Shown here in pieces: positions 942-35,362 of a DNA stretch of 35,654 nucleotides. The first letter of the stretch is position 1. Each line of letters starts with the position of its first letter. The stretch is from a virus. The position numbers were made by a program, and so were the translations under genes. The stretch lies in UHGV virus genome UHGV-0232315. One strand, given 5' to 3'. A model generated the notes under the pieces. The model did not search any database. It saw only the letters and a list, made by a program, of their open reading frames with translations, and was not told the origin of the DNA.

Positions 942-943
942 CA

Positions 944-1525
944 CTATCTCCAAGTCAAAGCTGCAACATAAATGCTTCTAACCTTAGTATAATCGTTTAG
1001 CACAGCACAAGCAGCCTCCATAGATGCGCCTGTATGGTAAAGGTCGTCAATGATAAGGACATTCCAGTTGCCATTATTCTCAATACTGTCATTAACAGAG
1101 AACGAATTACCCAGCGCCGTGATTTTCTCTTCTTTTGTATTCAGGTTCTTTAGCGAAGCCCCGCCGGGGGCTTTCAACAAGAGGTCATCGAAGCATGGTT
1201 TGCCAACTAGTTTGGCTAGTTCCTGAGCTATTTCGGTCACTGGCTGGCGTGCACGCTGATTAGATGCAGCCATTGGAACGATAAACCCGACATTGCTGAA
1301 ATGAGGAAAGGCATGCTCTGCTAGGCATTGGGCTAAAGGCTTAACTTGTGACCAATCGTTACGGTATTTAAGCTGGAAAAGAGATTCGCCTACCTCAGTA
1401 CGCTCAGTCTCAAACCGCATATGTCCCCACTCATCGTAACCAATGGGAATGCTGCGGATGCTGTGTTTATCCATCGCAAGACCTAATTCCCAATTTCCAA
1501 CAATCTGTTTTATGTTGACTTTCAT
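944..1525 (-). CDS. Phosphoribosyltransferase (PRTase)-fold protein (ShosT-like candidate)
   Basis: Classic type I PRTase PRPP-binding motif VLIIDDLYHTGASM near the C-terminus; ATG start 1525; first gene of a two-gene minus-strand operon. Confidence 0.65.
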   Translation of the reverse strand: MKVNIKQIVGNWELGLAMDKHSIRSIPIGYDEWGHMRFETERTEVGESLFQLKYRNDWSQVKPLAQCLAEHAFPHFSNVGFIVPMAASNQRARQPVTEIAQELAKLVGKPCFDDLLLKAPGGASLKNLNTKEEKITALGNSFSVNDSIENNGNWNVLIIDDLYHTGASMEAACAVLNDYTKVRSIYVAALTWR

Positions 1526-5363: not shown

Positions 5364-7129
5364 CAAAAAATCTCCACAATATTGCTGGTATTGGCGGACT
5401 CGCCCTGCAGCGGTTCGTTAAACAGTGCGTGCATCGTTGCCCAGGCCAGATCGGCGTGGCTGGCTTCTTCGCTGCGGCTGGCTTCATAGGTTGGGCGGTT
5501 GCCACTGGCGGTGGTTGCGCGACGGATTGCCATAAATGACTGCGCAATGTCGGTGTGCCCGGCGTCAAACTCCAGACGGCGGTGGCTGATAATGTCGTAG
5601 GCCTTGAGTACCAGGGCGTTTTTAACGTTGGGGTTGTAGACAAACTCCCGGACGGCAGGAAAGAACGCTTTCACGTTCTCGTAAACCCCGTGACCAACGC
5701 CGGTTGAGTCGATACCGATATAAGTCACGTTGTACTGCTCGGTAAGTTTTTTGATGGCGTCAGCCTGGGCGCGGAAGTCCATCCCGCGCCACTGGTGACG
5801 CTCAAGAATGCGGAACTTACCACCCGGCACGGCTGGCGGTGCCACCACCACGCATCCGGCGCTGTCGCCGTTTTGCGTACCTTTTGCCGGGTCATAACCG
5901 ATCCACACTTCGCGCCAGCCAAACGGGCGCAGCGCCAGTGCATGAAAGTCGGTCCAGATTTCCCAGCTGTCTACCATGCACGCCTGCAGCTCGCTGAGAG
6001 GGAACACGGACGCGAGATCGTCCACAAACTCGCACATCAGCAGGTTCTGGTATTCGTCCGGGCTGTACTCCATGCGCAACTGGTCAAGGTCGAACAGGTT
6101 ACAGCCGCCGCGCACCGCATCTTCCACGGTGACTATCTGGCGGTATTGCCCGTCTGCGCACAGCAGGCCGGGGGCCAGATTTCTGTGGGACAGGTCGATG
6201 TCCACCTTATCGGCTTTGTTGCGCCCACGGTTGAACAGCGCACCGGACCAGAACGGATAAGCACTGTGTGTCAGACTGGATGGCGTGGAAAAATAGGTTT
6301 GTCGCCATTTTTTGTGAATAGCCATACCGGAAGCCACTTTGCGCAGCTCCTGGAATTTCGGTATCCAGAAATATTCATCCAGATACAGGTTGCCGTGGTA
6401 ACTCTGGGCCGTGCGGGCATTGGTGCCGAGGAAGTAAAGCGTGGCCCCGTTAGGAAGCACCATCGGATCGCCTTTCAGCTCCACCTCGACTTCTTTGGCG
6501 AAGTCGATGATGTACTGCTTAAAGACGTGGGCCTGTGCCTTACTGGCGGAAAGGAAAATCTGGTTACGTCCGGTAAGCAGAGCGTCAATCAGGGCTTCAC
6601 GGGCAAAGTAAAAGGTCGCGCCGATCTGGCGTGATTTCAGCAGGTTGCGGATGCGGTTGGTTTTTCCGGCTTCCCACCAGTGGCGCTGGTAGTTGAACAT
6701 GGAGGAATGGAAGATTTCTTCCAGCTTCTCAATCTGTTCATCGGTGAAAACATTCTTTTCCGGCTGACGGCGCGGGCCTTTGTTGCGGTTGGCGACGTTA
6801 GGGTTTAAGTCGGCTTCGTTGCCGCCATTGTTAAACTTGCCGATGCGCGCGTGGCGCTCCGACTGGCGCGCCAGCAGGTCAATCTCTTTGAAATCTTTCC
6901 CTTCTTTGTGCTCCTTCATAATGAGCTGGCAGTAGCGTGCGGCGGTGGTGAGCTGCATCTGATCCAGCGGCCCATAGTCACCCCACTTGTCGCGTTTTTT
7001 CCAGCTATGAACGGTTGCAACTTTCTCGCCCAGCATTTCAGCAATGCGGGCGACGCGGTATCCCTGAAAGTACAGCAGCATGGCCTGCCGACGGGGATCG
7101 AGATCTGCGGGTGTCAGTGTGGTGTTCAT
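5363..7129 (-). CDS. P: Terminase large (ATPase) subunit (P2 gpP-like)
   Basis: 588-aa product upstream of Q in the divergent P2 arrangement; ATG 7129. Confidence 0.9.
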   Translation of the reverse strand: MNTTLTPADLDPRRQAMLLYFQGYRVARIAEMLGEKVATVHSWKKRDKWGDYGPLDQMQLTTAARYCQLIMKEHKEGKDFKEIDLLARQSERHARIGKFNNGGNEADLNPNVANRNKGPRRQPEKNVFTDEQIEKLEEIFHSSMFNYQRHWWEAGKTNRIRNLLKSRQIGATFYFAREALIDALLTGRNQIFLSASKAQAHVFKQYIIDFAKEVEVELKGDPMVLPNGATLYFLGTNARTAQSYHGNLYLDEYFWIPKFQELRKVASGMAIHKKWRQTYFSTPSSLTHSAYPFWSGALFNRGRNKADKVDIDLSHRNLAPGLLCADGQYRQIVTVEDAVRGGCNLFDLDQLRMEYSPDEYQNLLMCEFVDDLASVFPLSELQACMVDSWEIWTDFHALALRPFGWREVWIGYDPAKGTQNGDSAGCVVVAPPAVPGGKFRILERHQWRGMDFRAQADAIKKLTEQYNVTYIGIDSTGVGHGVYENVKAFFPAVREFVYNPNVKNALVLKAYDIISHRRLEFDAGHTDIAQSFMAIRRATTASGNRPTYEASRSEEASHADLAWATMHALFNEPLQGESANTSNIVEIF

Positions 7130-20768: not shown

Positions 20769-23700
20769 TAACAACTTGCGGCTGCAGGTCATTCTTAATG
20801 CGGTTGACAAACTCACCCGCCCATTCCGTGTTGCACAGGCCAGTTCGGAAGAGCTGGCTGGCGCAATCAGAAACTCCCGTGACGCATTAAAGCAACTTAA
20901 TCAGGCGGGTAATAGCCTGGAAAAATTTCGCAAGCTGCAGGCTGATAACAAGAAGTTAGGCGACAGGCTGAACTATGCCAGACAGAAGGCTAATTTGCTT
21001 AGCTCTGAGCTGGAGGCGATGGAACAACCATCACAACGGCACCTTGTGGCTTTAGGTCGGCAAACGCTGGCAGTCCAACGCCTGGAAGAACAGCAAAAAT
21101 ATTTGCAGAAGCAAACGGCGCTTGTGCGTGCAGAACTGTACCGGGCGGGAATTTCTGCGAAAGATGATGCGGGAGCAACTGCCCGTTTAGCCCGTGAAAC
21201 ATCACGTTATAACCAGGAATTGTCGAAACAGGAGGCGCGGCTGAAGCGACTGGGTGAAGCTCAGCGCAGGATGAATGCGGCGCGTGCCAGTTATGCCCGT
21301 TCGCTGGAGGTGCGCGATCGTATTGCAGGAGCCGGAGCCACTACCACGGCTGCAGGGCTGGCAATGGGGACGCCAGTGATGGCGGCAGTAAAAAGCTATA
21401 CCAGCATGGAAGATGCCATGAAAGGTGTGGCAAAGCAGGTCAATGGTCTGCGTGACGATAATGGAAACCGTACTGCACGTTTTTATGAAATGCAGGATGC
21501 CATCAAGGCTGCCAGCGAACAGTTGCCGATGGAAAACGGTGCGGTGGACTTCGCTGCACTGGTTGAAGGTGGTGCGCGCATGAACGTCGCAAACCCTGAC
21601 GACAGCTGGGAAGACCAGAAACGTGACCTGCTGGCCTTCGCCAGTACGGCAGCAAAGGCGGCAACAGCCTTTGAGCTGCCAGCGGATGAACTGTCAGAAA
21701 GTCTGGGGAAAATCGCCCAGCTCTACAAAATACCTACCCGCAATATTGAACAGCTCGGCGATGCGCTGAACTATCTGGATGATAACGCCATGTCGAAAGG
21801 GGCGGACATCATTGATGTGATGCAACGTCTGGGCGGTGTGGCTGACCGTCTGGATTATCGTAAAGCGGCGGCACTGGGTTCCACCTTTCTGACACTGGGC
21901 GCTGCGCCGGAGGTTGCAGCCAGTGCAGCAAACGCGATGGTGCGTGAATTGTCCATTGCCACCATGCAAAGCAAGAGTTTCTTTGAAGGGATGAATCTGC
22001 TGAAACTCAATCCTGAAGTGATTGAAAAGCAGATGACGAAGGATGCTATGGGAACTATCCAGCGTGTGCTGGAGAAGGTGAACGCACTGCCGCAGGACAA
22101 GCGTCTGTCTGCCATGACCATGTTGTTTGGTAAAGAGTTTGGCGATGACGCGGCGAAACTGGCAAACAACCTGCCGGAACTACAGCGCCAGCTAAAACTG
22201 ACAGCGGGCAATGATGCGCTCGGTTCCATGCAGAAAGAATCCGACATCAACAAGGACTCACTTTCTGCTCAGTGGTTGCTGGTTAAAACCGGAGCGCAGA
22301 ATACCTTCAGCAGCCTGGGCGAAACGCTGCGCCAGCCGCTGATGGATATTCTGTACACGGTGAAAAGAGTTACGGGAGCGTTGCGTCGCTGGGTGGAAGC
22401 TAACCCGGAACTGACGGGCACACTGATGAAAGTAGCCGCTATTGTGGCTGCGGTTACCGTAGGCCTCGGCACCTTGGCTGTGGCGCTGGCTGCAGTGCTG
22501 GGGCCGCTGGCAGTCATCCGTCTGGGATTCTCTGTGCTGGGCATCAAAACGTTACCTTCCGTTACGGCAGCAGTAACACGAACCAGCAGCGCGTTGTCCT
22601 GGCTGGCTGGCGCTCCACTGGCAGTGCTGCGACGCGGGCTTGCTTCATCGGGTAACGCAGCGGGTTTACTTACTGCGCCGTTGTCGTCTTTGCGCCGTAC
22701 GGCATCACTGACGGGAAATGTCATGAAAACTGTAGCAGGTGCGCCAGTTGCACTGTTGCGGTCTGGATTATCCGGTTTACGTGCGGTTGCTGTGATGTTT
22801 ATGAATCCACTGGCGGTACTGCGCGGTGGACTGACCGCCGCAGGCGCGGTGCTGCGAGTGCTGGCATCCGGTCCGCTGGCGATGCTGCGCGTTGCTCTGT
22901 ATGCCGTATCTGGTCTGTTAGGTGCTCTGCTCAGTCCGATAGGTCTTGTGGTTACTGCACTGGCGGGCGTGGCGCTGGTTGTCTGGAAATACTGGCAACC
23001 CATCACCGCATTTCTCGGTGGCGTGGTGGAAGGATTCAAAGCGGCGGCAGGTCCCGTCAGTGCAGCGTTCGAACCGCTTAAGCCCGTGTTCCAGTGGATT
23101 GGCGACAAAGTGCAGGCGCTGTGGGGCTGGTTTATTGATCTGCTGACGCCTGTTAAGTCGACCTCTGCCGAACTGCAGAGCGCAGCGGCAATGGGGCGAC
23201 GATTCGGGGAGGCACTGGCGGAAGGGCTGAATATGGTTATGCATCCGCTGGACTCCCTGAAATCCGGTGTTTCATGGTTGCTGGATAAACTCGGCATTGT
23301 CAGTAAAGAGGCTGCAAAGGCGAAACTGCCGGAAAGCGTGACGCGCCAGCAACCTGCGACGGTGAATGCTGACGGTAAAGTGATGATGCCATCGGGTGGT
23401 TTTCCGTCATGGGGATATGGCTTTGCGGGGATGTATGACAGCGGCGGCTATATCCCGCGCGGGCAGTTTGGCATCGTCGGTGAAAACGGGCCAGAAATTG
23501 TTAACGGCCCGGCAAATGTGACCAGCCGGAGAAATACAGCTGAACTGGCTGCCGTTGTTGCCGGAATGATGGGCGTTGCTACCGCGCCTGCAGAGCTTCC
23601 ACCGTTACATCCTTTGGCACTTCCCGCGAAAGGCGGCGAAGCGATGGTGAGTCGTGCAGCCACTGTGCCGCCCGTTCAACGGCTTGAGGCACCGACGCAG

Positions 23701-23838
23701 ATCATCATTCAGACGCAGCCAGGACAAAGTGCGCAGGATATTGCGCGGGAGGTGGCCCGCCAGCTTGATGAACGTGAACGCAGGCTGAAGGCAAAGGCCA
23801 GGAGTAACTACAGCGATCAGGGGGGATACGACGCATGA
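20761..23838 (+). CDS. T: Tail tape measure protein (P2 gpT-like)
   Basis: 1025 aa, coiled-coil-rich N-terminus, Gly/Ala-rich hydrophobic middle, conserved position. Confidence 0.9.
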   Translation: MSDNNLRLQVILNAVDKLTRPFRVAQASSEELAGAIRNSRDALKQLNQAGNSLEKFRKLQADNKKLGDRLNYARQKANLLSSELEAMEQPSQRHLVALGRQTLAVQRLEEQQKYLQKQTALVRAELYRAGISAKDDAGATARLARETSRYNQELSKQEARLKRLGEAQRRMNAARASYARSLEVRDRIAGAGATTTAAGLAMGTPVMAAVKSYTSMEDAMKGVAKQVNGLRDDNGNRTARFYEMQDAIKAASEQLPMENGAVDFAALVEGGARMNVANPDDSWEDQKRDLLAFASTAAKAATAFELPADELSESLGKIAQLYKIPTRNIEQLGDALNYLDDNAMSKGADIIDVMQRLGGVADRLDYRKAAALGSTFLTLGAAPEVAASAANAMVRELSIATMQSKSFFEGMNLLKLNPEVIEKQMTKDAMGTIQRVLEKVNALPQDKRLSAMTMLFGKEFGDDAAKLANNLPELQRQLKLTAGNDALGSMQKESDINKDSLSAQWLLVKTGAQNTFSSLGETLRQPLMDILYTVKRVTGALRRWVEANPELTGTLMKVAAIVAAVTVGLGTLAVALAAVLGPLAVIRLGFSVLGIKTLPSVTAAVTRTSSALSWLAGAPLAVLRRGLASSGNAAGLLTAPLSSLRRTASLTGNVMKTVAGAPVALLRSGLSGLRAVAVMFMNPLAVLRGGLTAAGAVLRVLASGPLAMLRVALYAVSGLLGALLSPIGLVVTALAGVALVVWKYWQPITAFLGGVVEGFKAAAGPVSAAFEPLKPVFQWIGDKVQALWGWFIDLLTPVKSTSAELQSAAAMGRRFGEALAEGLNMVMHPLDSLKSGVSWLLDKLGIVSKEAAKAKLPESVTRQQPATVNADGKVMMPSGGFPSWGYGFAGMYDSGGYIPRGQFGIVGENGPEIVNGPANVTSRRNTAELAAVVAGMMGVATAPAELPPLHPLALPAKGGEAMVSRAATVPPVQRLEAPTQIIIQTQPGQSAQDIAREVARQLDERERRLKAKARSNYSDQGGYDA

Positions 23839-24320
23839 TGATGGTGCTGGGATTGTACGTGTTTATGCTTCGCACTGTGCCGTATCAGGAACTGCAGTAT
23901 CAACGCAGCTGGCGACATGCGGCAAACAGCCGGGTAAACCGTCGTCCGTCCACGCAGTTTCTGGGACCGGAAAACGACATGCTGACGCTTTCCGGTGTTC
24001 TTATGCCGGAGATAACAGGCGGCAGGCTGACGTTGCTGGCACTGGAGCAGATGGCAGAACAGGGGAAAGCATGGCCCCTGATTGAAGGCAGCGGCACGAT
24101 TTACGGCATGTATGTGATTGAGGGACTGAATCAGACTAAAACGGAGTTTTTCCGCGACGGTATGCCGCGCAGGATTGAGTTCACCCTTTCGCTAAAACGG
24201 GTGGATGAATCCCTGTCCGATATGTTCGGTGATCTCAGAACTCAACTGAATAATCTGCAGGACACGGCAACGTCTGCCTTAAGCGATATCAGTAAAACGG
24301 TGGGAGGGCTGCTGTCGTGA
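23835..24320 (+). CDS. U: Tail protein U (P2 gpU-like)
   Basis: 161 aa; ATGA overlap with T stop. Confidence 0.85.
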   Translation: MMMVLGLYVFMLRTVPYQELQYQRSWRHAANSRVNRRPSTQFLGPENDMLTLSGVLMPEITGGRLTLLALEQMAEQGKAWPLIEGSGTIYGMYVIEGLNQTKTEFFRDGMPRRIEFTLSLKRVDESLSDMFGDLRTQLNNLQDTATSALSDISKTVGGLLS

Positions 24321-25417
24321 ATTTCAGCTCTGAACTGCTTAACAAAGGCAACAAAACTCCGGCATTCAGCATCAGTATTGAAGGCAGGGATATCACTACT
24401 GTGCTGGACAACCGCCTGATGGGGCTTACGCTGACGGATAACCGGGGCTTTGAAGCGGACCAGCTTGATCTGGAGCTGGACGACGCCGATGGCAAAATCG
24501 TGCTGCCGCGCCGTGGTGCGGTCATTACGCTGGCGCTGGGCTGGAAGGGGCAGCCGCTTTTCCCGAAAGGGGCATTCACGGTGGACGAGATTGAACACAC
24601 TGGCGCACCGGACCGCCTGACTATCCGGGCGCGAAGTGCTGATTTTCGTGAAACACTGAATACCCGCCGTGAAAAGTCGTGGCACAAGACCACCGTTGGG
24701 GAAGTGGTGAAGGAAATAGCTGCGCGGCACAAACTGAAGATGGCATTGGGTAAAGACCTGTCAGATAAACCCGTGGAACATATAGACCAGACCAATGAGA
24801 GTGACGGCAGTTTTCTGATGCGGCTGGCGCGCCAGCACGGTGCTATTGCGTCGGTGAAAAATGGCAATCTGTTATTCATCCGACAGGGGCAGGGTAAAAG
24901 CGCCAGTGGTAAACCACTACCGGTTATCACTATCACACGTGAGGACGGCGACAGTCACCGCTTTACCCTGGCAGATCGCGGAGCTTACACGGGCGTAATT
25001 GCCAGCTGGTTGCATACCCGCGAACCCGCGAAGAAAGAAAGCACCGCGGTGAAGCGTAAGCGCAGGACTAAGAAGCAGAAGAAAGAGCCGGAAGCGAAGC
25101 AGGGCGATTACCTGGTGGGTACGGATGAAAACGTGCTGGTACTTAATCGCACCTATGCTAATCGGAGTAACGCCGAACGGGCAGCGAAAATGCAGTGGGA
25201 ACGCCTGCAACGCGGCGTTGCGTCATTCTCGCTACAACTGGCGGAAGGGCGGGCAGATCTCTACACGGAAATGCCAGTGAAAGTCAGTGGCTTTAAACAG
25301 CTGATAGATGATGCGGAATGGACCATTACGACTCTGACACATACCGTCAGCCCGGATAACGGTTTTACGACCAGTCTGGAGCTTGAAGTGAGGATTGATG
25401 ATTTCGAAATGGAATGA
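24317..25417 (+). CDS. D: Tail protein D (late control gene D-like)
   Basis: 366 aa; GTG start overlapping the U stop; GGGAGGG RBS. Confidence 0.85.
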   Translation: MNFSSELLNKGNKTPAFSISIEGRDITTVLDNRLMGLTLTDNRGFEADQLDLELDDADGKIVLPRRGAVITLALGWKGQPLFPKGAFTVDEIEHTGAPDRLTIRARSADFRETLNTRREKSWHKTTVGEVVKEIAARHKLKMALGKDLSDKPVEHIDQTNESDGSFLMRLARQHGAIASVKNGNLLFIRQGQGKSASGKPLPVITITREDGDSHRFTLADRGAYTGVIASWLHTREPAKKESTAVKRKRRTKKQKKEPEAKQGDYLVGTDENVLVLNRTYANRSNAERAAKMQWERLQRGVASFSLQLAEGRADLYTEMPVKVSGFKQLIDDAEWTITTLTHTVSPDNGFTTSLELEVRIDDFEME

Positions 25418-25507
25418 TTCTTCGCAATGGAGAACTTTTAAGTTTGCAAAATGGAATAATGCGGTATCATTATTGTGAATTTAGCAAAAATGGGGAGAAC
25501 TCGAAAA

Positions 25508-25726
25508 ATGATGATTTGCCCACTGTGTGGAAGTGCCGCCCATACTCGCAGCAGTTTTCAGGTATCTTCATTGACCAAAGAGCGTTACAACCAGTGCCAG
25601 AACATTAACTGCAGCCATACTTTTGTTACCCATGAAACTTTTGTTCGTTCGATTGCAACGCCAAAAGAGTCAAATCCGGTTCAGCCGCATCCAATGAAAT
25701 CAGGACAGGTAGCGCTCTCTCTTTGA
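25508..25726 (+). CDS. ogr: Ogr/B-family zinc-finger late transcription activator
   Basis: ORF 25475-25726; start placed at ATG 25508 (MMICPLCGSAAHTRSS...ERYNQCQNINCSHTF), Cys4 pattern and length (72 aa) as in P2 Ogr. Confidence 0.85.
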   Translation: MMICPLCGSAAHTRSSFQVSSLTKERYNQCQNINCSHTFVTHETFVRSIATPKESNPVQPHPMKSGQVALSL

Positions 25727-25804
25727 CGCTGCCGCCATTTTGTCGCCATCGTTAAAAAACAGTGCTTCTAACATCATGATCTTAAACAGCTTAAATTTCA
25801 GGCA

Positions 25805-25830
25805 ACAAAAAACCCATTTATGTAAACGGG
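25805..25830 (-). terminator. Weak hairpin plus T-run downstream of int (minus strand)
   Basis: On the minus strand cccgttt-acat-aaatggg is followed by TTTTTT; the stem is short with one mismatch. Confidence 0.3.
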
Positions 25831-25836
25831 TTAATG

Positions 25837-25870
25837 AAAACAATAAGTTAGATTAAAAACAATAAGTTAG
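25837..25870. repeat. Two 15-bp direct repeats (AAAACAATAAGTTAG) spaced 19 bp apart in the ogr-int intergenic (att-like) region
   Basis: Exact copies at 25837-25851 and 25856-25870; candidate integrase arm-type or accessory-factor binding sites. Confidence 0.5.
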
Positions 25871-25891
25871 GTTGGTGGTCAGTGGTGGTTA

Positions 25892-26944
25892 TTACGGGGT
25901 AATGCCAACCGCTGCCGCCACTTTGCCGCCACTTGGCAGCGTTGCCAGAGGATTGAAACGGAGCGCCGTTTCCAGATGATCCGGTGCCAGATGAGCGTAA
26001 CGCATAGTCATTTTTATATCGTGATGTCCGAGGATTTTTTGCAAAGCAAGGATATTTCCACCCGACATCATGAAATGTGCCGCAAACGTATGGCGCAGAA
26101 CGTGTGTCAGTTGACCGCGAGGGAGCACGATTGACGTTTTTTCCATCACGGATAAAAATTGAAAATAGCAGTCTGTGAAGAAATTGAACCCATCAAGCGC
26201 CATGATCTCTTCATAAAGCTCTTTACTGATAGGGATGCTTCTGTTTTTCTTCCCCTTCGTTCTTACAAAGGTAATTCGGTATTTAGTCACCTGTGATCGG
26301 GTAAGGTTTATTGCTTCTCGCCAGCGTGCGCCTGTGCTTAAGCATATCTTGACTACCAGTGCCAGAATTGGGTCCTGACGTTTGCAATCAGCCAGCAGTT
26401 CAACAATCTGCTCATGGGTAAGCCATGCCATCTCTTTTTCTGCGATGGTGAATTTTCGCATGTTCTCCAGTGGGTTTGGATACGACCATTCGCCCAGGCG
26501 GGATAGTTCGCTAAAAACACTACTTAGATAGCTTTGCTCCAGGTTAATGGTGACCGGGCTGGCTCCTTTCTTCCATTTCTCGCTGAAGTAGATCTCACCT
26601 GTCAGGCGTTTATCTCGATAGTGGGCAAACATTTTAGAGGTGAGATCGGTTGCAAGAGGATTGCCCAGAGCGTCAACCATCAGCAGCAATTTGTCATAGA
26701 CATGCTGCCCAGCAGTCAGAGATTTACCATGTAATTTGAACCATAGCTCAACCACGTCTTTCAGTGTTCGACGATCCACTGATTCACCTAGCCAAGGCTT
26801 TGCTTCGGTTTCTTCCATCGTGTGACGCTCAAAAGCCAGAGCTTCGCCTTTGGTGGCGAATTGTTTACGCACACGACGTCCACTACGTCCGGCGGGATAA
26901 CATTCGCACAGCCATTTTCCTGTGGTGAGTTTTCGTACTGCCAT
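25892..26944 (-). CDS. int: Tyrosine integrase
   Basis: 350 aa MAVRKLTTGKWLCECYPAGRSGRRVRKQF... with C-terminal ...HVLRHTFAAHFMMSGGNILALQKILGHHDIKMTMRYAHL catalytic region (R..H-x-x-R..Y). Confidence 0.9.
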   Translation of the reverse strand: MAVRKLTTGKWLCECYPAGRSGRRVRKQFATKGEALAFERHTMEETEAKPWLGESVDRRTLKDVVELWFKLHGKSLTAGQHVYDKLLLMVDALGNPLATDLTSKMFAHYRDKRLTGEIYFSEKWKKGASPVTINLEQSYLSSVFSELSRLGEWSYPNPLENMRKFTIAEKEMAWLTHEQIVELLADCKRQDPILALVVKICLSTGARWREAINLTRSQVTKYRITFVRTKGKKNRSIPISKELYEEIMALDGFNFFTDCYFQFLSVMEKTSIVLPRGQLTHVLRHTFAAHFMMSGGNILALQKILGHHDIKMTMRYAHLAPDHLETALRFNPLATLPSGGKVAAAVGITP

Positions 26945-26969
26945 AAAAAAGTCCTCATGTCTGAGGACT
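26945..26969 (-). terminator. Perfect 8-bp hairpin plus T-run immediately upstream of the int start codon (terminator and/or RBS-sequestering structure)
   Basis: Minus strand: AGTCCTCA-gaca-TGAGGACT-TTTTT-ATG; the 3' arm contains the int GAGGA Shine-Dalgarno. Confidence 0.45.
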
Positions 26970-27026
26970 AAATTTAACTGTATGTTTGAACAGTGGTCAA
27001 TGTTTAAAGATCTTCAATCAAACATT

Positions 27027-28358
27027 TCATTGGAGCAAGAAAACTTTTAAGGTGTTTTTGAATATTCTAACAGGGTCTTCTACACCTGCATTTCCTTTTA
27101 AAATATGATAATCACTTATTTCAGCCCATCTGTTTTTTTCATCGTTTTCAGAAGGAAGTAAAGGAGAACCTTCTGGCATATATTTATAAGTTATACCAAA
27201 TAATGCATAATAGTAGATGTTGATGTTATATTGATCTGTCTGATATGGGAGTCTATTAACACCGAAGAAATTAATTATTAATTGTGCATCTATTTTATCT
27301 TCTACGTAGTTAAGGGCCAGTTCACGACCAAACGAATAAAGAATTACTGCAAGGGTTCGATAACAGCAATAGCCTGGTATAAATTTATTGCTGATTTCAT
27401 TTTGAGATAAAATTTGATAAATTTCTAGATATCTTGATAAGGTTTCAACTTCCCGTAGCGACAAGCCTTTTAGTTCGATAAATTTTTGAACTATATGAAT
27501 ACTACTTTCTCCAATTTCTTTTAGTCTTTCAGACTCGTTACATAGCATTCTAAAATGAGAGTTCGAAGCCAAAATTTTATCGTAATTGTTTTCAGTGAAA
27601 GTCACTGGCAGGCTGTAAGTGAATTTTATAAATTTATCAAGATATCTTTCTGAGTCAACACCTGCACCGTAAATATGATTTATTGATGCTTTCAATTGTG
27701 AGATGTTAGCAACTAACAAGAAGTTAAGATTTTCAGTGTCAAAAACATGTTTTATATTTTCGATGATAGAGATGGCAAAGCTTGGTTTACAACGGTCAAG
27801 TTCGTCAATGATAATTGTTATTTTATTTTCGCTAGTTAGTTCAGCAAGTACTTCCTTGAGAGCAAGCAAATGTTTCTTTGCTTCAATATGATCATCAAGC
27901 AGTGCTTCTACAGTACCATCTATAGCTGAGTTAGCCGCATCTTTAATAGCATCTTCGAATTCATCCGCAATATCATCTGCATTTTGTTTTAAAATCCACC
28001 CAGCGCCAGCTTTGAGTACAGTTTTAAGTCCAAATCTCAATGCTGGTAATGCCTTTGATATTAATTCCTTCTTTTCACTCTCTGGATATAATGCAACTAT
28101 TGCAGCCATTATAGTAAGTATGGGAGCATCATTATGATCTTCAGTAAATGCATCAATATATACTACTTTATGCCCAGATTCATTTTTTTCAATCAATGCC
28201 GCTAATTTTTTTGAAAATTCGGTTTTACCGGTACCCCAGTCCCCATCGATAACAATAGGGGATATTTTTAAGGGGGACTCGAGTAAGCTTATTATTTTTT
28301 CAGCAATGATTTTTCTATTATACTCATCTCTGTTTTCAAAAGTCATATCATTATTCAT
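27027..28358 (-). CDS. KAP-family P-loop NTPase
   Basis: Walker A GDWGTGKT (GxWGxGKT KAP signature) and Walker B IIIDELDRC; ORF-track start 28367 is TTG, I place the start at ATG 28358 after AAGG; AT-rich. Confidence 0.65.
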   Translation of the reverse strand: MNNDMTFENRDEYNRKIIAEKIISLLESPLKISPIVIDGDWGTGKTEFSKKLAALIEKNESGHKVVYIDAFTEDHNDAPILTIMAAIVALYPESEKKELISKALPALRFGLKTVLKAGAGWILKQNADDIADEFEDAIKDAANSAIDGTVEALLDDHIEAKKHLLALKEVLAELTSENKITIIIDELDRCKPSFAISIIENIKHVFDTENLNFLLVANISQLKASINHIYGAGVDSERYLDKFIKFTYSLPVTFTENNYDKILASNSHFRMLCNESERLKEIGESSIHIVQKFIELKGLSLREVETLSRYLEIYQILSQNEISNKFIPGYCCYRTLAVILYSFGRELALNYVEDKIDAQLIINFFGVNRLPYQTDQYNINIYYYALFGITYKYMPEGSPLLPSENDEKNRWAEISDYHILKGNAGVEDPVRIFKNTLKVFLLQ

Positions 28359-28369
28359 ATGAAGCAACC

Positions 28370-28555
28370 TTAGTTTTTAGAACATATTTTCTTTGACTTG
28401 CTTTGCGTTCCATCATTGCAAACGAACTTCCCATCAGATGTACAATGTGAAACTCCCCCTTTCTTACCAGAACATGGATAATTTTTTGCAAAACTTGTAA
28501 TAGGTAAAGTAATAAATAAACAAATAAGTAGGATATGTATAGATTTATAAAACAT
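28370..28555 (-). CDS. Small secreted Cys-rich, Lys-rich peptide (predicted signal peptide)
   Basis: ORF 28370-28573; start placed at ATG 28555 after AAGGA; [23 protein letters not shown] then a 38-aa mature part with 4 Cys and 8 Lys; stop lies 11 nt upstream of the NTPase ATG (28358). Confidence 0.5.
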
Positions 28556-28578
28556 ATTTATTTCCTTATACATTAATT

Positions 28579-29142
28579 TTAATAATTGACGATCGCGCTT
28601 CTAATTTTTCCTATGATATCAATTTCATCTATTTTGCATTCAAAGGAACTGCTGCCACCATCGACATTTAGACGACGTCCCGGCAGTCTTGTCAGATTCC
28701 TGATAGCAACCTCGCCATCAATATCAACGATCCACTTACCATCACGTACATCCTCATAATCCGAATCACAGATAAACTCTGATGCGCCATCGATCACAAC
28801 AAAAGGTTTTTTTAGTTTTTCAGGCAAAAAGTTGTTGTCGAAAATGTAGTAACCATCAGGAAGTAGTTTTCCGCTTGATAAAATCTTCCTTTCGATCTCT
28901 TTTGTGTTTTCTTTTTGTGAACTTTCTTTTGAACCTTGCCCAGTAGTTAGCCACTCTAGCGACGTGCCGGTTTCAAGTGCACATTGGATTACCCATTCTG
29001 CCGGGAATGAATCACGCATATAGCGCGTGGCTAAGGTGCTTTTAGAAATGCCCAAATGATCACACAAAGCTTGTCTTGTCTTGAAACCATAGGCTTCAAC
29101 CATGCGCTCTATGGCCCCACGACCGCCTTTTTCCAAATTCAT
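28579..29142 (-). CDS. cI: Immunity repressor CI (phage 186 CI-like)
   Basis: ORF 28579-29148 (GTG); ATG 29142 after GGAG; N-terminal HTH region and C-terminal ...[27 protein letters not shown]... resembling 186 CI. Confidence 0.8.
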
Positions 29143-29267
29143 GGTCACTCCAAGTGAACTTTTACCTTGACGATTTCATGATGTGATCGTATGTTTGCAG
29201 TGTTCACATAATACAAACGATCAGTATTCATCCTGATTAATCATTGCTAAAAGAGGAATGTTGCATC
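29143..29267. promoter_or_regulatory. Lysis-lysogeny switch region (divergent pL/pR-type promoters and operators)
   Basis: Intergenic region between divergent cI and apl; dyads GTGAAC(29155-29160)/GTTCAC(29212-29217) and TGATCGT(29184-29190)/ACGATCA(29217-29223); two GATC sites. Confidence 0.5.
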
Positions 29268-29489
29268 ATGAGACCTAACATTTCAATCACTCTCATCACC
29301 CCCCACGTTACTATAGAAAGATATAGTGAACTCACTGGCTTATCTATCGACACAATTAACGACATGCTTGCAGATGGGCGTTTGCCTCGTCATCGCCTAC
29401 GTAAGGATAAAAAGCGTGAAAAAGTGATGATTAACATTGCTGCGATGACGATCGATGCCCTCTCTGATTGCAACGTGACTATCAACTAG
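29268..29489 (+). CDS. apl: Apl/Cox-type excisionase-repressor
   Basis: ORF 29244-29489; start placed at ATG 29268 after AGAGGA; small basic protein as the first gene of the rightward early operon. Confidence 0.65.
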   Translation: MRPNISITLITPHVTIERYSELTGLSIDTINDMLADGRLPRHRLRKDKKREKVMINIAAMTIDALSDCNVTIN

Positions 29490-29521
29490 TTCCATTTTGA
29501 GACTTCACGGAGCAACTGACT

Positions 29522-30031
29522 ATGTTTGACTATCGCATTTCAAAACATCCCCATTTCAATGAAGCCTGCCGGGCCTTCGCCCTACGACACAACATGGCGA
29601 AGCTGGCAGAGCGCGCAGGTATGAACGTTCAAACCTTGCGTAACAAGCTCAACCCGGAACAACCACACCAACTTACTGCGTCAGATATCTGGCAGTTAAC
29701 CGATCTCACTGAAGACCCAACACTGGTTGATGGATTTCTGGCTCAGATTCACTGCCTGCCATGTATACCGGTAAATGAGGTGGCAAAAGAGAGACTGCCA
29801 CATTACGTCATGAGTGCAACCGCAGAGATCGGGCGTGTTGCTGCAGGTGCGGTGTCTGGCGATGTAAAAACCTGTGCCGGTCGTCGTGATGCTATCAGCA
29901 GCATTAATTCTGTAACACGACTGATGGCGCTGGCGGCTGTTTCATTGCAGGCCCGTTTACAGGCTAATCCTGCGATGGCGAGTGCAGTTGATACCGTGAC
30001 TGGCCTCGGTGCTTCATTTGGTTTGCTGTGA
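29522..30031 (+). CDS. cII: CII-like lysogeny-establishment activator (186 CII-like)
   Basis: 169 aa MFDYRISKHPHFNEACRAFALRHNMAKLAERAGMNVQTLRNKLNPEQPH... resembling 186 CII. Confidence 0.75.
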   Translation: MFDYRISKHPHFNEACRAFALRHNMAKLAERAGMNVQTLRNKLNPEQPHQLTASDIWQLTDLTEDPTLVDGFLAQIHCLPCIPVNEVAKERLPHYVMSATAEIGRVAAGAVSGDVKTCAGRRDAISSINSVTRLMALAAVSLQARLQANPAMASAVDTVTGLGASFGLL

Positions 30032-30038
30032 GGTGCTT

Positions 30039-30239
30039 ATGCTGACGAAAGAACCATCATTTGCATCGCTGCTGGTTAAACAAAGCCCGGCAATGCATTA
30101 CGGTCACGGCTGGATCATGGGGGAGGATGGTAAACGCTGGCATCCGTGCCGTTCACAAGATGAATTGCTGGCAGAACTATCTACGAAAAAACGGGGGAAC
30201 AAATGGCTATTGAAGGCACTGCGGCGACTGTTCCATTAA
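30039..30239 (+). CDS. Hypothetical early protein (186 fil position)
   Basis: ORF 30009-30239; ATG 30039 after GAGGTG. Confidence 0.5.
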   Translation: MLTKEPSFASLLVKQSPAMHYGHGWIMGEDGKRWHPCRSQDELLAELSTKKRGNKWLLKALRRLFH

Positions 30240-30544
30240 GCCCCGGTGAACGCCTGAATGGACTTAATCACATTGCGGAGTTAAGGGCGAAAGTTTTTGG
30301 CCTGAATATTGAGTCAGAGCTTGAGCGGTTTATTAAAGATATGCGTGATTCACGGGATATTAATAGCGAACAAAATAAACGGGCACTGGCTGCCATATTC
30401 TTTATGGCAAAAATTCCAGCTGAACGTCATAGCATCAGCATTAATGAGCTGACCACTGACGAAAAGCGGGAGTTGATTAAAGCAATGAATCATTTTCGTG
30501 CAGTGGTGAGCTTATTTCCCAGACGGCTAACCATGCCGAATTAA
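30203..30544 (+). CDS. Hypothetical early protein (186 dhr position)
   Basis: 113-aa ORF overlapping the previous gene by 37 nt. Confidence 0.5.
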   Translation: MAIEGTAATVPLSPGERLNGLNHIAELRAKVFGLNIESELERFIKDMRDSRDINSEQNKRALAAIFFMAKIPAERHSISINELTTDEKRELIKAMNHFRAVVSLFPRRLTMPN

Positions 30545-30611
30545 CCAACTAATGAAATTAATGGCGTAAACCCGCCGGGCATCCCTTTATCTAAATTCAG
30601 GAGAATTGATT

Positions 30612-30845
30612 ATGCGTAATATTGAAACCCTCTCGACCAAAACCGGACCGGATGACGCAGGGCTTAATATTTTACTGACAGAGGCTCGTCTGGAAGAACG
30701 CCGGGCAAGGGCTGAAGCAATGGCAGCTCGCCTTGATAGTCTGGCGTGTCATATTACATCCCGCCAGCTAAACCACGTCGAAGCGGCAGAACTGCTGCGT
30801 GTGACTGCTGAAGCAATCCAGAACGAAGCGCAGGAGATCCACTAA
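30612..30845 (+). CDS. Hypothetical early protein
   Basis: ORF 30606-30845 (TTG); ATG 30612 after AGGAGA. Confidence 0.55.
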   Translation: MRNIETLSTKTGPDDAGLNILLTEARLEERRARAEAMAARLDSLACHITSRQLNHVEAAELLRVTAEAIQNEAQEIH

Positions 30846-31072
30846 TGGCTGATGCAATGGATCTCGTACAGCAGCGCGTTGAAGAAGAACGCCAGCGCCA
30901 TATCCGTGCTGCCCGTGCCAAAACACCGGGCGTGTCACGCGTACTTTGCATTGAATGTGAAGCGCCAATTCCGCCAGCACGACGCCGCGCCATTCCGGGA
31001 GTGCAGCTTTGCATTACCTGTCAGGAAATCGCAGAACTGAAAGGCAAACATTACAACGGAGGTGCTGTATGA
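30845..31072 (+). CDS. TraR/DksA-family C4 zinc-finger protein
   Basis: CIECEAPIP...CITCQ four-Cys motif at the C-terminus of a 75-aa protein; TAATG overlap upstream and ATGA overlap downstream. Confidence 0.7.
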   Translation: MADAMDLVQQRVEEERQRHIRAARAKTPGVSRVLCIECEAPIPPARRRAIPGVQLCITCQEIAELKGKHYNGGAV

Positions 31073-31917
31073 GCACCATCCTGAAATGGGCGGGAAATAA
31101 AACGGCCATTATGGCAGAACTGAAAAAATACCTTCCTGCTGGCCCGCGACTGGTTGAACCTTTCGCGGGTTCCTGTGCAGTGATGATGGAGACGGATTAC
31201 CCCAGCTATCTGGTTGCGGATATTAATCCTGATTTAATCAACCTCTATAAAAAGGTTGCCGCTGATTGTGAATCGTTTATATCTCGCGCCAGAGTTTTAT
31301 TTGAGAACGCAAACAGGGAGATGGCTTATTACAACATAAGGCAGGAGTTTAATTACTCAACTGAAATTACTGATTTCATGAAAGCAGTATATTTCCTGTA
31401 TCTCAATCGTCACGGTTACCGTGGTTTATGTCGCTATAACAAGAGCGGGCATTTCAACATTCCCTACGGTAATTATAAAAATCCGTATTTCCCTGAAAAA
31501 GAAATTCGTGCATTTGCAGAAAAAGCCCAGCGGGCAACATTTATCTGCGCCAGCTTCGATGAAACGCTGGCAATGTTGCACGCGGGGGATGTTGTGTATT
31601 GCGATCCGCCTTATGACGGTACGTTTTCCGGCTATCACACTGACGGCTTCACTGAAGATGACCAGTATCACCTGGCATCCGTTCTTGAACATCGGTCATC
31701 AGAAGGACATCCGGTCATTGTTTCTAACAGTGACACATCCCTGATCCGTTCGCTGTATCGCAATTTCACTCACCACTACATCAAGGCAAAACGCAGCATT
31801 GGCGTGTCAGCTGGCGAGAGTAAATCTGCAACAGAAATCATTGCCACCAAATCAGCTGGGTGGTTTGGTGTCGATTTTGCCAGCGGCTCTGACCGTACCG
31901 TTGAGGTACGCGCATGA
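31069..31917 (+). CDS. dam: DNA N6-adenine methyltransferase (Dam/D12 class)
   Basis: ORF 31009-31917; ATG 31069 after GGAGGTG; N-terminal KWAGNK and catalytic DPPY ([10 protein letters not shown]) motifs. Confidence 0.85.
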
Positions 31918-32924
31918 ATGCTATCGATCCGCGTTGCTTTGCCTCAGGCACCATTAACGTCATCACTACTTCTGGTGGCAAAGATAGTCTCGCTCAATGG
32001 CTAAGAGCCATTGAAAACGATGTTCCGCATATTTCTGTATTTGCCGATACGGGTCATGAACATCCACAGACAATAGAATATCTGGATTATCTGGAATCAA
32101 AGCTGGGCAAGATTATTCGCGTCAAAGCGGATTTCACACGCCAGATAGAAGGGAAACGTAAATTCATTGCGGAAAAGTGGCCCATTTCTCTCGTTGAGGA
32201 ATGTGGTATGTCGACAGATGAGGCTGAGGAACGTATTTACCGGGCACTGGAAATCCTTAAACCAACCGGCGTTCCGTTTCTTGATTTGTGCATGTGGAAA
32301 GGTCGCTTCCCTTCAACAAAAGCTCGTTTCTGCACTTTTGAACTGAAACATGAACCAATACGTACACAGGTAATCGATCCAGCTCTGGATGAATACGATG
32401 AGGTAATCAGCTGGCAAGGAGTCCGGGGGCAGGAATCACCGGAACGTGCATTGTTGCCTGAGTGGGAGGACGATGCAGACAATACTCTGGGGCTGCATGT
32501 TTATCGTCCGATCCTTAATTGGCTGCATGAGGATGTGTTTGCTATTGCCAAACGTCATGGCATTAAGCCTAACCCCCTTTATATGCAGGGATGCAGTCGT
32601 GTCGGTTGTATGCCATGCATTCATGCTCGCAAGTCAGAACTTGGAGAGATTTTCCAACGCTGGCCAGAAGAAATCCGCCGAGTGGCTGAGTGGGAAAGAC
32701 TGGTTGCGGAATGTTCAAGACGTGGCAATTCAACGTTCTTTCCATCCACGCATGATCCGCGCCGTGCTGAAAAACGGATCGAAGTCATAACTGTTGATGC
32801 TTATGGTATTGAAACTTATCGGGACTGGGCCTTAACGACTCGGGGCGGTATGCAGTTTGACCTGCTGGCAGGCATGAATGATAAAGCGGTGTGCAGCAGT
32901 GTATATGCAGGAGTCTGTGAGTGA
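31914..32924 (+). CDS. PAPS-reductase/DndC-like PP-loop ATP pyrophosphatase family protein
   Basis: PP-loop TSGGKDS near the N-terminus, C-terminal Cys cluster [10 protein letters not shown]; ATGA overlap with the dam stop. Confidence 0.7.
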
Positions 32925-35362
32925 CAGAGATCAGCACAGGCCGTCTTGCCGATCCATTTGTCAGTGTAACTTCCGGTAGCATTGAGAATTCTGCCGGGGG
33001 TTATTCGTGGAATTTACCTAAGAAAGCCATTAACCCTTATCTGGACCCGGCGGAAGTTGCGCCGGTTTCTGCGCTTTCAAACCTGATCACTCTGTACGCT
33101 ACCGATAACGAGCAGGAACAACTGCGCCGCGAGGCACTGAGTGATCAGGTCTGGGAGCGTTATTTCTTTAATGAATCCCGTGATCCTGTCCAGCGCGAAA
33201 TGGAGCAGGATAAGCTCATTAGCCGGGCAAAGTTGGCGCATGAGCAGCAGCGTTTTAACCCGGACATGGTCATTCTGGCAGACGTCAGCGCCCAGCCCTC
33301 CCATATCAGCAAGCCGCTGATGCAACGTATTGAATACTTCAGCAGCCTGGGCAGGCCAAAGGCTTATTCCCGCTATTTACGTGAGACGATTAAGCCATGT
33401 CTGGAACGACTGGAGCATGTACGCGACAGCCAGCTATCTGCATCTTTTCGTTTTATGGCAAGCCATGTAGGGCTGGACGGCCTGCTGATTCTGCCTGAAA
33501 TGAGTCAGGATCAGGTGAAACGCCTGTCTACCCTTGTCGCTGCGCATATGAGCATGTGCCTTGATGCAGCTTGTGGTGATTTGTATGCCACCGATGACGT
33601 TAAGCCAGAAGAAATCCGCAATACATGGGAAAAGGTGGCAGCGGAAACCCTGCGTCTGGATGTCATCCCGCCTGCGTTTGAGCAACTCCGTCGGAAAAGA
33701 AACCGCCGTAAACCCGTGCCCTATGAACTCATTCCGGGTTCGCTGGCGCGTATGTTGTGCGCCGACTGGTGGTACCGGAAATTATGGAAAATGCGTTGCG
33801 AATGGCGGGAAGAGCAGTTGCGTGCTGTCTGCCTGGTCAGCAAAAAAGCATCTCCCTATGTCAGCTATGAAGCCGTGATGCATAAACGTGAGCAGCGCCG
33901 CAAGTCACTGGAGTTTTTCCGTTCTCATGAACTGGTGAACGAAGAGGGCGACACGCTGGATATGGAAGACGTGGTAAACGCCAGCAGCAGCAACCCGGCG
34001 CACCGCCGCAATGAGATGATGGCCTGTGTTAAAGGTCTGGAGCTTATCGCGGAAATGCGCGGTGACTGCGCCGTTTTCTACACCATTACCTGTCCGTCAC
34101 GTTTCCATTCTACGCTCAATAACGGCAGACCAAACCCAACCTGGACAAATGCGACGGTAAGACAAAGCAGCGATTATCTGGTCGGCATGTTTGCTGCATT
34201 TCGTAAGGCGATGCACAAAGCCGGGTTGCGCTGGTATGGCGTGCGGGTGGCTGAGCCGCATCATGACGGTACAGTTCACTGGCACCTGTTGTGTTTCATG
34301 CGCAAAAAAGACCGCCGCGCCATTACTGCATTGTTGCGTAAGTTTGCCATCCGTGAAGACCGCGAGGAACTGGGTAATAACACTGGTCCACGCTTTAAAT
34401 CTGAGCTGATAAACCCGCGCAAAGGAACGCCGACAAGCTACATCGCGAAATACATCAGTAAGAACATTGACGGGCGTGGTCTGGCTGGCGAGATCAGCAA
34501 GGAAACGGGTAAATCCCTGCGTGATAACGCTGAATACGTTAATGCCTGGGCGTCTCTGCATCGTGTACAGCAATTCCGCTTCTTTGGTATTCCGGGACGT
34601 CAGGCTTACCGTGAACTTCGCTTGCTGGCTGGTCAGGCGGCAAGGCAACAGGGTGACAAAAAAGCAGGTGCGCCGGTACTGGATAACCCGCGTCTTGATG
34701 CCATTCTGGCTGCTGCTGATGCTGGTTGTTTTGCCACCTACATCATGAAGCAGGGCGGCGTACTGGTTCCCCGCAAATATCACCTCATCAGAACCGCTTA
34801 TGAAATCAACGAAGAGCCAACCGCCTATGGCGATCACGGTATTCGTATTTATGGCATCTGGTCACCCATTGCAGAGGGCAAGATCTGCACTCATGCAGTG
34901 AAGTGGAAAATGGTTCGTAAGGCCGTTGACGTTCAGGAGGCGGCAGCCGACCAGGGCGCTTGCGCCCCTTGGACTCGTGGCAATAATTGTCCCCTTGCTG
35001 AAAATTTGCACCAACAAGGGAAAGACAAATCAGCTGATGGGGATACCAGGACGGACATTACCCACATGGATGACAATGAGTTGCACGATTACCTGCACAG
35101 TATGAGCAAAAAAGAGCGCCGGGAACTGGCTGCAAGGTTACGCCTGGTGAAACCGAAACGGCGTAAAGACTACAAACAGCGAATTACAGACCATCAGCGA
35201 CAGCAGCTCGTCTATGAACTGAAGTCCAGAGGATTTGATGGTAGCGAGAAAGAGGTCGATTTACTCCTTCGCGGCGGCAGTATTCCGTCAGGAGCAGGCC
35301 TGCGTATCTTCTATCGGAACCAGCGTTTGCGGGAAGATGATAAGTGGCGGAACCTGTATTAA
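32921..35362 (+). CDS. A: Replication initiation endonuclease (P2/186 gene A-like, rolling-circle HUH type)
   Basis: 813 aa; GTG start overlapping the upstream stop; HWHLLCF (HUH-type motif) and tyrosine pair YIAKYISK. Confidence 0.85.

Follow-up and report, generated by a model that had tools for sequence, protein, structure and literature searches.

The DNA stretch that we analyzed (UHGV virus genome UHGV-0232315, 35,654 nucleotides (nt), hereafter the window) is the genome of a P2/186-like phage (Peduoviridae), permuted as in the phage form. Between its immunity repressor gene cI and its integrase gene int it hosts two genes, which encode a KAP P-loop NTPase and a small four-cysteine peptide of the YdcA family. 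We propose that a 186-like temperate phage here keeps a slot for cargo ('moron') genes, and that the KAP protein most likely serves in the anti-phage defense of the lysogen, a reading to which we assign a probability of roughly 60%. The anatomy of the genes, their family membership, their modular independence, the variability of the slot and the defense-type contexts of the KAP homologues are directly supported.

Both genes lie on the minus strand, like cI and int. The operon opens with cI (28579-29148, or from 29142 with the RefSeq start; Pfam Phage_CI_repr 3.1e-33, Phage_CI_C 6.2e-29), the first gene of the lysogenic operon. After 23 nt follows the peptide gene (28370-28555, 61 amino acids (aa)), the likely start of which within the enclosing open reading frame (ORF; 28370-28573) is the ATG at 28555, with AAGGA upstream. 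The KAP gene (27027-28358; 443 aa from its ATG, 446 aa if the TTG at 28367 is used) begins 11 nt further on, and another 82 nt separate it from int (25892-26944; Pfam Int_N 3e-32, Phage_integrase 7.4e-22), which encodes a tyrosine integrase. The GC content falls to about 0.31 (0.29-0.37 over 26950-28600), compared with 0.42-0.61 across most of the flanking 22000-33000 profile. These coordinates and the drop in GC content confirm the AT-rich stretch of about 1.5 kb that the initial annotation of this DNA had placed between cI and int on their strand. Its assignment of both genes to the lysogenic cI-int transcription unit is also sustained by the 23-nt and 11-nt spacers, and a terminator scan found no minus-strand terminator-like site between cI and the hairpin that precedes int. 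Promoter-like sites in the region number 14, against 11.7 ± 3.8 in shuffled sequence, and the scan alone supports no promoter. Identical DNA in Escherichia coli chromosomes is annotated in RefSeq, in order, as 'phage repressor protein CI', 'YdcA family protein', 'KAP family P-loop NTPase fold protein' and 'phage integrase', with the peptide gene labeled hypothetical in some of those records. Judged by their conservation across genera and their strong profile matches, both the peptide gene and the KAP gene are real.

The larger protein matches the Pfam family KAP_NTPase (PF07693) at E = 3.8e-51 (174.5 bits versus a cut-off of 20) over profile positions 2-290 of 293. This match, well above the cut-off, agrees with the earlier recognition of a KAP NTPase 11 nt after the peptide by its motifs GDWGTGKT (Walker A, residues 39-46) and IIIDELDRC (Walker B, residues 181-189). 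G39, W41, G42, G44, K45, D185, E186, L187, D188, R189 and C190 are invariant in 28 homologues. The initial annotation could not match the pair to a named defense system, but for the NTPase a match exists: it is a full-length match to the PADLOC candidate PDC-S20 (model PDLC04956, E = 1.1e-171, residues 4-444 versus model positions 1-447 of 450), and three further PDC-S20 models match it at 1e-60 to 3e-28. In PHROGs it matches phrog_8614 at 2e-96. The family comprises 1743 proteins at E <1e-5, mostly of 440-450 aa, and the window protein, with its intact ORF, is conserved at 68-83% identity between genera.

We found no transmembrane segment in the KAP protein by hydropathy: no 19-residue Kyte-Doolittle (KD) average exceeds 1.1, and the protein is therefore a soluble KAP variant. 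The insert between Walker A and Walker B reportedly bears transmembrane helices in many KAP members, a feature that is said not to be obligatory. Here the insert is present (helices 93-126 and 135-174) but has no hydrophobic transmembrane stretch. An AlphaFold2 model derived from 28 homologues (pLDDT 77.8) consists of a P-loop core with a helical hairpin insert at about 93-174 and an all-helical C-terminal domain at about 321-443. When the model was compared with the PDB by Foldseek, the top match was the RADAR defense ATPase RdrA (E = 7e-5), followed by ORC/Cdc6, DnaA and RFC, while a sequence search of the PDB with the KAP family profile gave no match below E 0.2. Among homologues, the mean column identity is 0.65 for residues 1-320 compared with 0.37 for residues 321-443. 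The same trend is detectable in the comparison with the other E. coli allele (55% identical overall), where residues 1-320 are 63% identical and the C-terminal 123 residues only 31%. A conserved NTPase joined to a rapidly diverging C-terminus is what one would expect if the latter were a domain for specificity or sensing.

In more distant Proteobacteria (Psychrobacter, Shewanella, Ferrimonas, Aliidiomarina and two metagenome-assembled genomes (MAGs)), KAP homologues with 42-47% identity are part of Type I restriction-modification (R-M) operons, with hsdM/hsdS on one side and hsdR on the other. At six homologous loci, KAP is flanked by hsdM and/or hsdR, and by hsdS where tested. Embedding of this type is the criterion that defined the PDC candidates, 145 systems recognized by their position within known defense systems (Payne et al. 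2024, bioRxiv 10.1101/2024.01.29.577857), and the R-M loci therefore represent a defense-type context for the KAP family. The window protein shares with PDC-S20 both the full-length model match and the R-M-embedded homologues of the candidate definition. However, the window copy is itself prophage cargo in a lysogenic cI-int operon and is not embedded in an R-M, BREX or DISARM system. The KAP alleles of two other prophage loci, that of the 55%-identical E. coli allele (L084) and that of Rahnella (L005, 2e-171), match PDC-S20 as well.

Other KAP proteins have been associated with phage defense. In Enterococcus, phage protection has been described for EF_KAP and for three metagenomic KAP proteins; that by EF_KAP depends on Walker B and is apparently not abortive (PMC12632615). 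'Reve', a KAP/ORC-like single gene of a P4-satellite hotspot, protects against Drexlerviridae and siphoviruses (bioRxiv 10.64898/2026.02.27.708500). EF_KAP, Reve and the window KAP, compared here by their descriptions, are all single polypeptides that combine a KAP domain with an unannotated C-terminal region and are carried on mobile elements; Reve and the window KAP both give Foldseek matches to ORC ATPase. EF_KAP differs in having two N-terminal transmembrane helices and a C-terminal region of 322 aa, whereas the window KAP is soluble and its C-terminal domain measures about 120 aa. A membrane-inserted KAP of the Tmn or EF_KAP type is ruled out for the window, as the hydrophobic segment is absent. 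Membership in PifA, QatA, PrrC or mad8 is likewise ruled out, since the similarity is only at the P-loop level. PifA, which mediates T7 exclusion by the F plasmid, has the NTPase module in common with KAP (E 2e-15, residues 8-255), but its profile match is limited to positions 11-255 of 720, and the 443-aa KAP is no PifA. QatA of the Qat system also matches in the NTPase module (2.4e-10 in PADLOC, 2.7e-11 in NCBIfam), but with an NCBIfam score of 42.9 bits versus a cut-off of 600 and with ydcA and int as neighbors in place of QatBCD, so that KAP is no QatA.

The position of the KAP gene is variable in content. Whether 186-like genomes normally leave the cI-int junction empty, a question raised with the initial annotation, is answered for phage 186: there, the stop of cI overlaps with the start of int, so that the junction is empty and no cargo is present. 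Elsewhere we observed the YdcA gene alone, KAP alone, YdcA with KAP, a 329-aa ORF with KAP, and PD-Lambda-1. The last of these occupies the slot in the phages vB_EcoM-813R9 and 'Klebsiella phage KP12', whose int DNA is 95-96% identical to that of the window and whose Int protein is 99% identical. Their 558-aa slot gene (at 6224-7900 of L002 and 5774-7450 of L003, annotated 'chromosome segregation ATPase') matches PD-Lambda-1 at E 3e-120 and bears the RefSeq label DUF4041 / 'SNIPE associated domain'. PD-Lambda-1 is among the anti-phage systems that Vassallo et al. 2022 recovered by functional selection, and its DNA was matched in about 163 complete E. coli genomes (here and below, E. coli counts are matches among 5426 complete genomes). 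It sits in exactly the same cI-int slot as KAP, as an allelic alternative at the locus, but it is an unrelated protein without KAP domain and no homologue of the window KAP. The KP12 record is filed under Vequintavirinae although the clone is P2/186-like.

The other defense cargo of these sister prophages lends weight to the earlier interpretation of the region as prophage-encoded protection or conversion cargo, although a slot of this type is not new. A cI-int defense hotspot was reported in K139-like Vibrio phages (Rousset et al. 2022, PMC9122126), and the integrase-primase interval was described as a minor P2 hotspot with 8% of the defense systems of P2-like phages (bioRxiv 10.64898/2026.02.27.708500). 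In Vibrio phage K139, orf2 (with a BRCT domain) and Glo, annotated as 'periplasmic protein; involved in phage exclusion', lie between cI and int on the PL operon. This phage, a related member of the Peduoviridae, is like the window in carrying cI-int cargo on the PL transcript and in combining a periplasmic with a cytoplasmic protein, but its order (cI-orf2-glo-int) is reversed with respect to the window and its host belongs to a different clade. By sequence, we detected no homology of the window proteins to K139 Glo or orf2.

We set the borders of the slot by pairwise blastn against YdcA-only, KAP-only and PD-Lambda-1 prophages. Homology resumes at window positions 27036, 27025 and 27003, respectively, with 93-95% identity. 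In the comparison with the YdcA-only locus L087, the cI and ydcA side is 72% identical, KAP is absent, and identity is 93.6% from 27036 downward. Because this homology is shared before int, the last ~90 nt are phage backbone and not cargo. The resulting int leader (26945..27036, minus strand) contains a promoter-like element, TTGACC-18-TAAATT, at 27000-26971 (conserved form TTGAC(C/A)-N16-18-TAAA(T/A)T) and the hairpin AGTCCTCA-GACA-TGAGGACT at 26969-26950, followed by T6 and abutting the int ATG. The int Shine-Dalgarno sequence GAGGA lies inside the 3' arm of the hairpin, and the leader RNA folds with z = -3.6. The cassette had been said to end at a hairpin and T-run; the structure is there, but it belongs to the int leader and is conserved whatever the cargo. 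The leader was found in all cargo variants and is absent from phage 186. Its hairpin exists in two sequence versions among prophages, and in the window one base pair shows a compensatory change from C:G to U:A; the RNAalifold consensus is weak, the two versions being out of register, and each folds alone. A possible role of the leader is to uncouple the expression of int from the cI/cargo transcript or to occlude the ribosome-binding site of int.

The first gene of the slot encodes, by its profile and homologue matches, a member of the YdcA family. It matches NCBIfam PRK10040.1-2 (NF007463) at E 3.5e-25 (87.6 bits, just below the equivalog cut-off of 93) and phrog_6000 at 6.5e-26. Its close homologues carry PF27300 (YdcA), and RefSeq names the identical protein 'YdcA family protein'. 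A predicted signal region at residues 1-23 (putative cleavage SFA|K) precedes a 38-aa Lys-rich mature part with four conserved Cys. The features of the signal region were recognized by eye and hydropathy: a basic n-region MFYK, a hydrophobic stretch (KD15 up to 2.5) and the S-F-A|K site. Across 16 aligned homologues, residues 1-23 differ in sequence yet stay hydrophobic and end in small-x-Ala, while the mature part is almost invariant, the four Cys included. Hydropathy and alignment thus agree with the earlier description of a peptide of about 60 aa with a hydrophobic N-terminus followed by a Lys-rich part with 4 Cys. The predicted mature peptide has 8 Lys/Arg versus 2 Asp/Glu, and the AlphaFold2 model (pLDDT 72.8) shows a helix at residues 3-24 and a small beta-hairpin. 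From these features, the peptide is probably exported by the Sec pathway, cleaved after SFA and closed by two disulfides in the periplasm. Compared with YdcA of E. coli K-12 (b1419), it is 53% identical over the mature part and shares the putative signal peptide and the four-Cys motif; the K-12 gene, however, is chromosomal and lies between rydC and hokB, whereas that of the window is in a prophage. In our literature search on YdcA, we found no paper on what the E. coli members of the family do.

To characterize the association between the two genes, we compared their distributions. Among the complete E. coli genomes, 9 contain the 1631 bp of the window locus, with an identity of 99.6-100%. 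The 55%-identical KAP allele occurs without the peptide, in the order cI-KAP-int, in about 14. A 63-aa YdcA allele with 67% identity is the sole cI-int gene in very many E. coli prophages; in each of the loci L087-L091, for example, it occupies positions 4001-4192, with no other gene between cI and int. At a coverage of at least 80%, the YdcA-only gene with its spacer was matched in 593 genomes, including that of the BL21 derivative C41(DE3), and the index of the sequence collection lists the exact 63-aa protein in about 19,600 blocks. Since an integrase of this type occurs in 1111 complete genomes, the YdcA-only arrangement fills roughly half of the slots, and KAP, in either allele, about 2%. 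By these counts, the putatively secreted YdcA peptide appears to be among the commonest passengers of lysogenic operons in E. coli.

Outside E. coli, the KAP family resides in the 186-like cI-int slot of Enterobacter, Klebsiella, Kosakonia, Buttiauxella and Rahnella. The order cI-YdcA-KAP-int is found in E. coli, Enterobacter ludwigii, Klebsiella, Kosakonia and Buttiauxella. In Rahnella the order is cI, a 329-aa orphan ORF, KAP and int, with the ORF and KAP overlapping by ATGA. The ORF (Rahnella inusitata L005, 5003-5992) has no Pfam or PADLOC match and may be an alternative partner or a further stacked cargo gene. On one contig (L026), cI is directly followed by a KAP gene 69% identical to that of the window. 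This 1.4-kb contig is labeled as a Pseudopedobacter saltans MAG, and as its sequence looks enterobacterial, the assignment is probably contamination. When we searched 79 loci from other taxa by tblastn, no YdcA-like sequence was found beside KAP except in Buttiauxella. Among phage records, megablast matches were confined to the int part, and tblastn with KAP gave five matches, weak or non-syntenic. The YdcA gene alone, KAP alone and KAP with another partner are therefore all represented, and on this co-occurrence evidence the peptide and the KAP protein are separate modules and no obligate pair. An obligate two-gene system is rejected on these grounds, and so is the earlier view of the pair as one 1.5-kb cassette, given the roughly 593 genomes with YdcA alone and the KAP loci with a different partner or with none.

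Three independent lines thus place the KAP family in a defense-type context: the R-M operons of its distant homologues, its recurrence in the cI-int slot of 186-like prophages of Enterobacterales, and PD-Lambda-1 as an alternative at that site. The observations reported above suggest how the slot may work. Its genes would be transcribed together with cI and hence be expressed in the lysogen. Both would be part of the pL (maintenance) and pE (establishment) transcripts that produce CI, as in 186 and K139. The slot would hold two functionally independent passengers: the YdcA pre-peptide, which appears to be the commonest occupant among E. coli prophages that have an integrase of this type, and KAP, a rarer add-on 11 nt behind the peptide gene and presumably without its own promoter. 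By analogy with its RdrA/ORC-like fold neighbors, we infer that KAP could be a STAND/ORC-like switch with sensor and oligomerization functions, in which the N-terminal NTPase module would drive nucleotide-dependent assembly and the C-terminal helical domain would recognize or act on a component of a heterologous phage, so that replication is blocked. The peptide would be exported and act in the envelope as an independent periplasmic factor, with superinfection exclusion as the obvious positional analogy with Glo.

Several observations weigh against this proposal. PDC-S20 is a predicted defense candidate only, and our literature search for it returned no paper that mentions it. By profile search, no effector domain (nuclease, TIR, pore or the like) is recognizable in the KAP protein, and this missing domain is the main gap in the proposed mechanism. 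The structural matches that inspire it are weak, with TM values near 0.34, and the model of the insert has low confidence over 48 residues (110-157). Expression of both genes in the lysogen is suggested by the gene spacing and by analogy with the PL transcripts of 186 and K139. The cI-int position was established for the example loci described here, whereas 593, 163 and 14 are counts of matches. Finally, the window's allele of the cI 3' end and ydcA occurs in exactly the same 9 E. coli genomes as its KAP allele; in this lineage cI, ydcA and KAP travel as a single block, co-inheritance is inseparable from co-function by genomics alone, and a functional link is possible.

We considered whether KAP might serve lysogeny or induction control, prophage stabilization (addiction) or a lysogenic-conversion trait in place of anti-phage defense. 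The fold, which is like that of the replication-initiator and clamp-loader ATPases ORC, Cdc6, DnaA and RFC, would suit such a role, as would the position of the gene beside the lysis-lysogeny switch and int, and the predicted defense status of PDC-S20 together with the absent effector domain points the same way. However, KAP is dispensable for this type of phage, as 186 and most of its relatives do without it, and at this site it is interchangeable with a validated defense gene, PD-Lambda-1. Its distant homologues are embedded in R-M operons and, in those loci, lie outside any prophage, and its hypervariable C-terminus is more in keeping with the target of an arms race than with a regulator of housekeeping type. 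We therefore regard a function outside defense as unlikely.

Roughly as improbable, in our judgment, is a bolder form of the defense proposal, in which the slot would be a two-layer immunity add-on to the repressor: a periplasmic YdcA factor acting in exclusion or on the envelope, together with a stand-alone KAP defense protein that has no effector and an unprecedented mechanism. An ORC/RdrA-like KAP ring could, for example, directly trap a replication or packaging protein of the phage. If true, the peptide, which is present in >10% of E. coli genomes, would be the first member of its orphan y-gene family to be assigned a function.

Still less probable is that the peptide and the NTPase form one two-gene system, such as a periplasmic sensor or effector peptide that works with a cytoplasmic NTPase. 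The 11-nt spacing on one transcript is compatible with it, and so are the order cI-ydcA (61 aa)-KAP-int kept across the five genera listed above, the restriction of this ydcA allele, among complete E. coli genomes, to those with KAP, and the K139 slot, which likewise combines a cytoplasmic with a periplasmic protein. Yet YdcA is alone in about 593 genomes, PDC-S20 KAP alleles stand alone, KAP has an unrelated 329-aa partner in Rahnella, and tblastn detected no YdcA-like sequence at the KAP loci in R-M operons. As KAP has no transmembrane or periplasmic segment, the two products would also be in different compartments. Moreover, PADLOC files PDC-S20 in its 'S' candidate series, and the peptide matched no partner model.

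We also give little credence to the possibility that the YdcA-like peptide is the main cargo, as a Glo-like periplasmic factor of superinfection exclusion or envelope conversion, and KAP a recent hitch-hiker of low effect: the dominance of YdcA in the slot, its nearly invariant mature part behind a drifting signal peptide and the location of ydcA directly 3' of cI, much as that of glo, whose product is periplasmic and exclusion-linked, in the K139 PL operon, favor it, but the peptide has no sequence similarity to Glo, the YdcA literature search yielded no functional study, and the intact ORF, invariant catalytic motifs and 68-83% identity of KAP across genera argue that KAP is under selection too. 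As regards the peptide, this explanation is compatible with the one that we prefer, namely two independent passengers of which KAP probably serves in defense.

At about 1.6 kb and with its native lysogenic context, the locus offers an easily cloned case of the candidate PDC-S20. It comes with natural alleles for comparison, with and without ydcA and differing mainly in the C-terminus, which could help to locate what determines specificity in a minimal, soluble KAP protein. The cI-int junction of 186-like prophages in E. coli emerges as a swap site for PD-Lambda-1, KAP NTPases and, most often, YdcA-family peptides; by its distribution, the YdcA peptide is the usual resident of the slot and no dedicated partner of KAP. 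Prophage hotspots, defense cargo expressed in lysogens and KAP-domain defense proteins were already known, and current views of them stand; the locus is a useful but fairly ordinary example of prophage cargo.

The rest of the window has the features of a 186-like phage. On the plus strand, divergent from cI, lie apl/cox (29268-29489), an early lytic gene annotated as 'regulator' in RefSeq, and cII (29522-30031; Pfam Phage_CP76 1.1e-42, RefSeq 'CII family'), which together form a 186-type switch with cI. By likeness to the 186 annotation of pR, pL and pE, we expect pR and pL within 29143-29267. Beyond int, a terminator-like hairpin at 25811..25832 (minus strand, 9-bp stem and T-run in the terminator scan) is the probable end of the lysogenic operon, and phage 186 has an annotated terminator at the equivalent position. 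Tail gene D (24317-25417) and ogr/B (25475-25726) follow, and an attP region is present as well as int.

Further candidate genes occur elsewhere in the window. The classical P2 hotspot, flanked by gpA (32921-35362) and the portal gene (4335-5366), spans the ends of the window. We found there a 778-aa AAA_13 ATPase at 1949-4285 (plus strand; Pfam AAA_13 1e-163) that matches PADLOC PDC-S06 at E 1e-266, so that the phage carries a second candidate defense gene. Two ORFs of about 190 aa occur at 944-1525 and 384-953 (both minus strand), one with a weak ShosT/PsyrT-like match (9e-9) and the other with no match. The stretch 31009-32924 (plus strand), 5' of gpA, encodes a D12 methyltransferase of the Dam type (Pfam 6e-76) as well as a protein with a PAPS-reductase domain (6e-34). 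The latter has weak SspD/BrxP/DndC-like PADLOC matches, and its gene is in the position of the non-essential PAPS-reductase gene 5' of A in 186. Among the related loci, those of Enterobacter and Kosakonia have a putAbiC-domain gene outside int, beyond the att side (L083 6511-7335 and L094 6711-7547), and that of Klebsiella has a SocA_Panacea-domain gene and a 249-aa ORF outside int (L092 6813-8035). These genes at the int-att edge may be further defense or toxin-antitoxin cargo.

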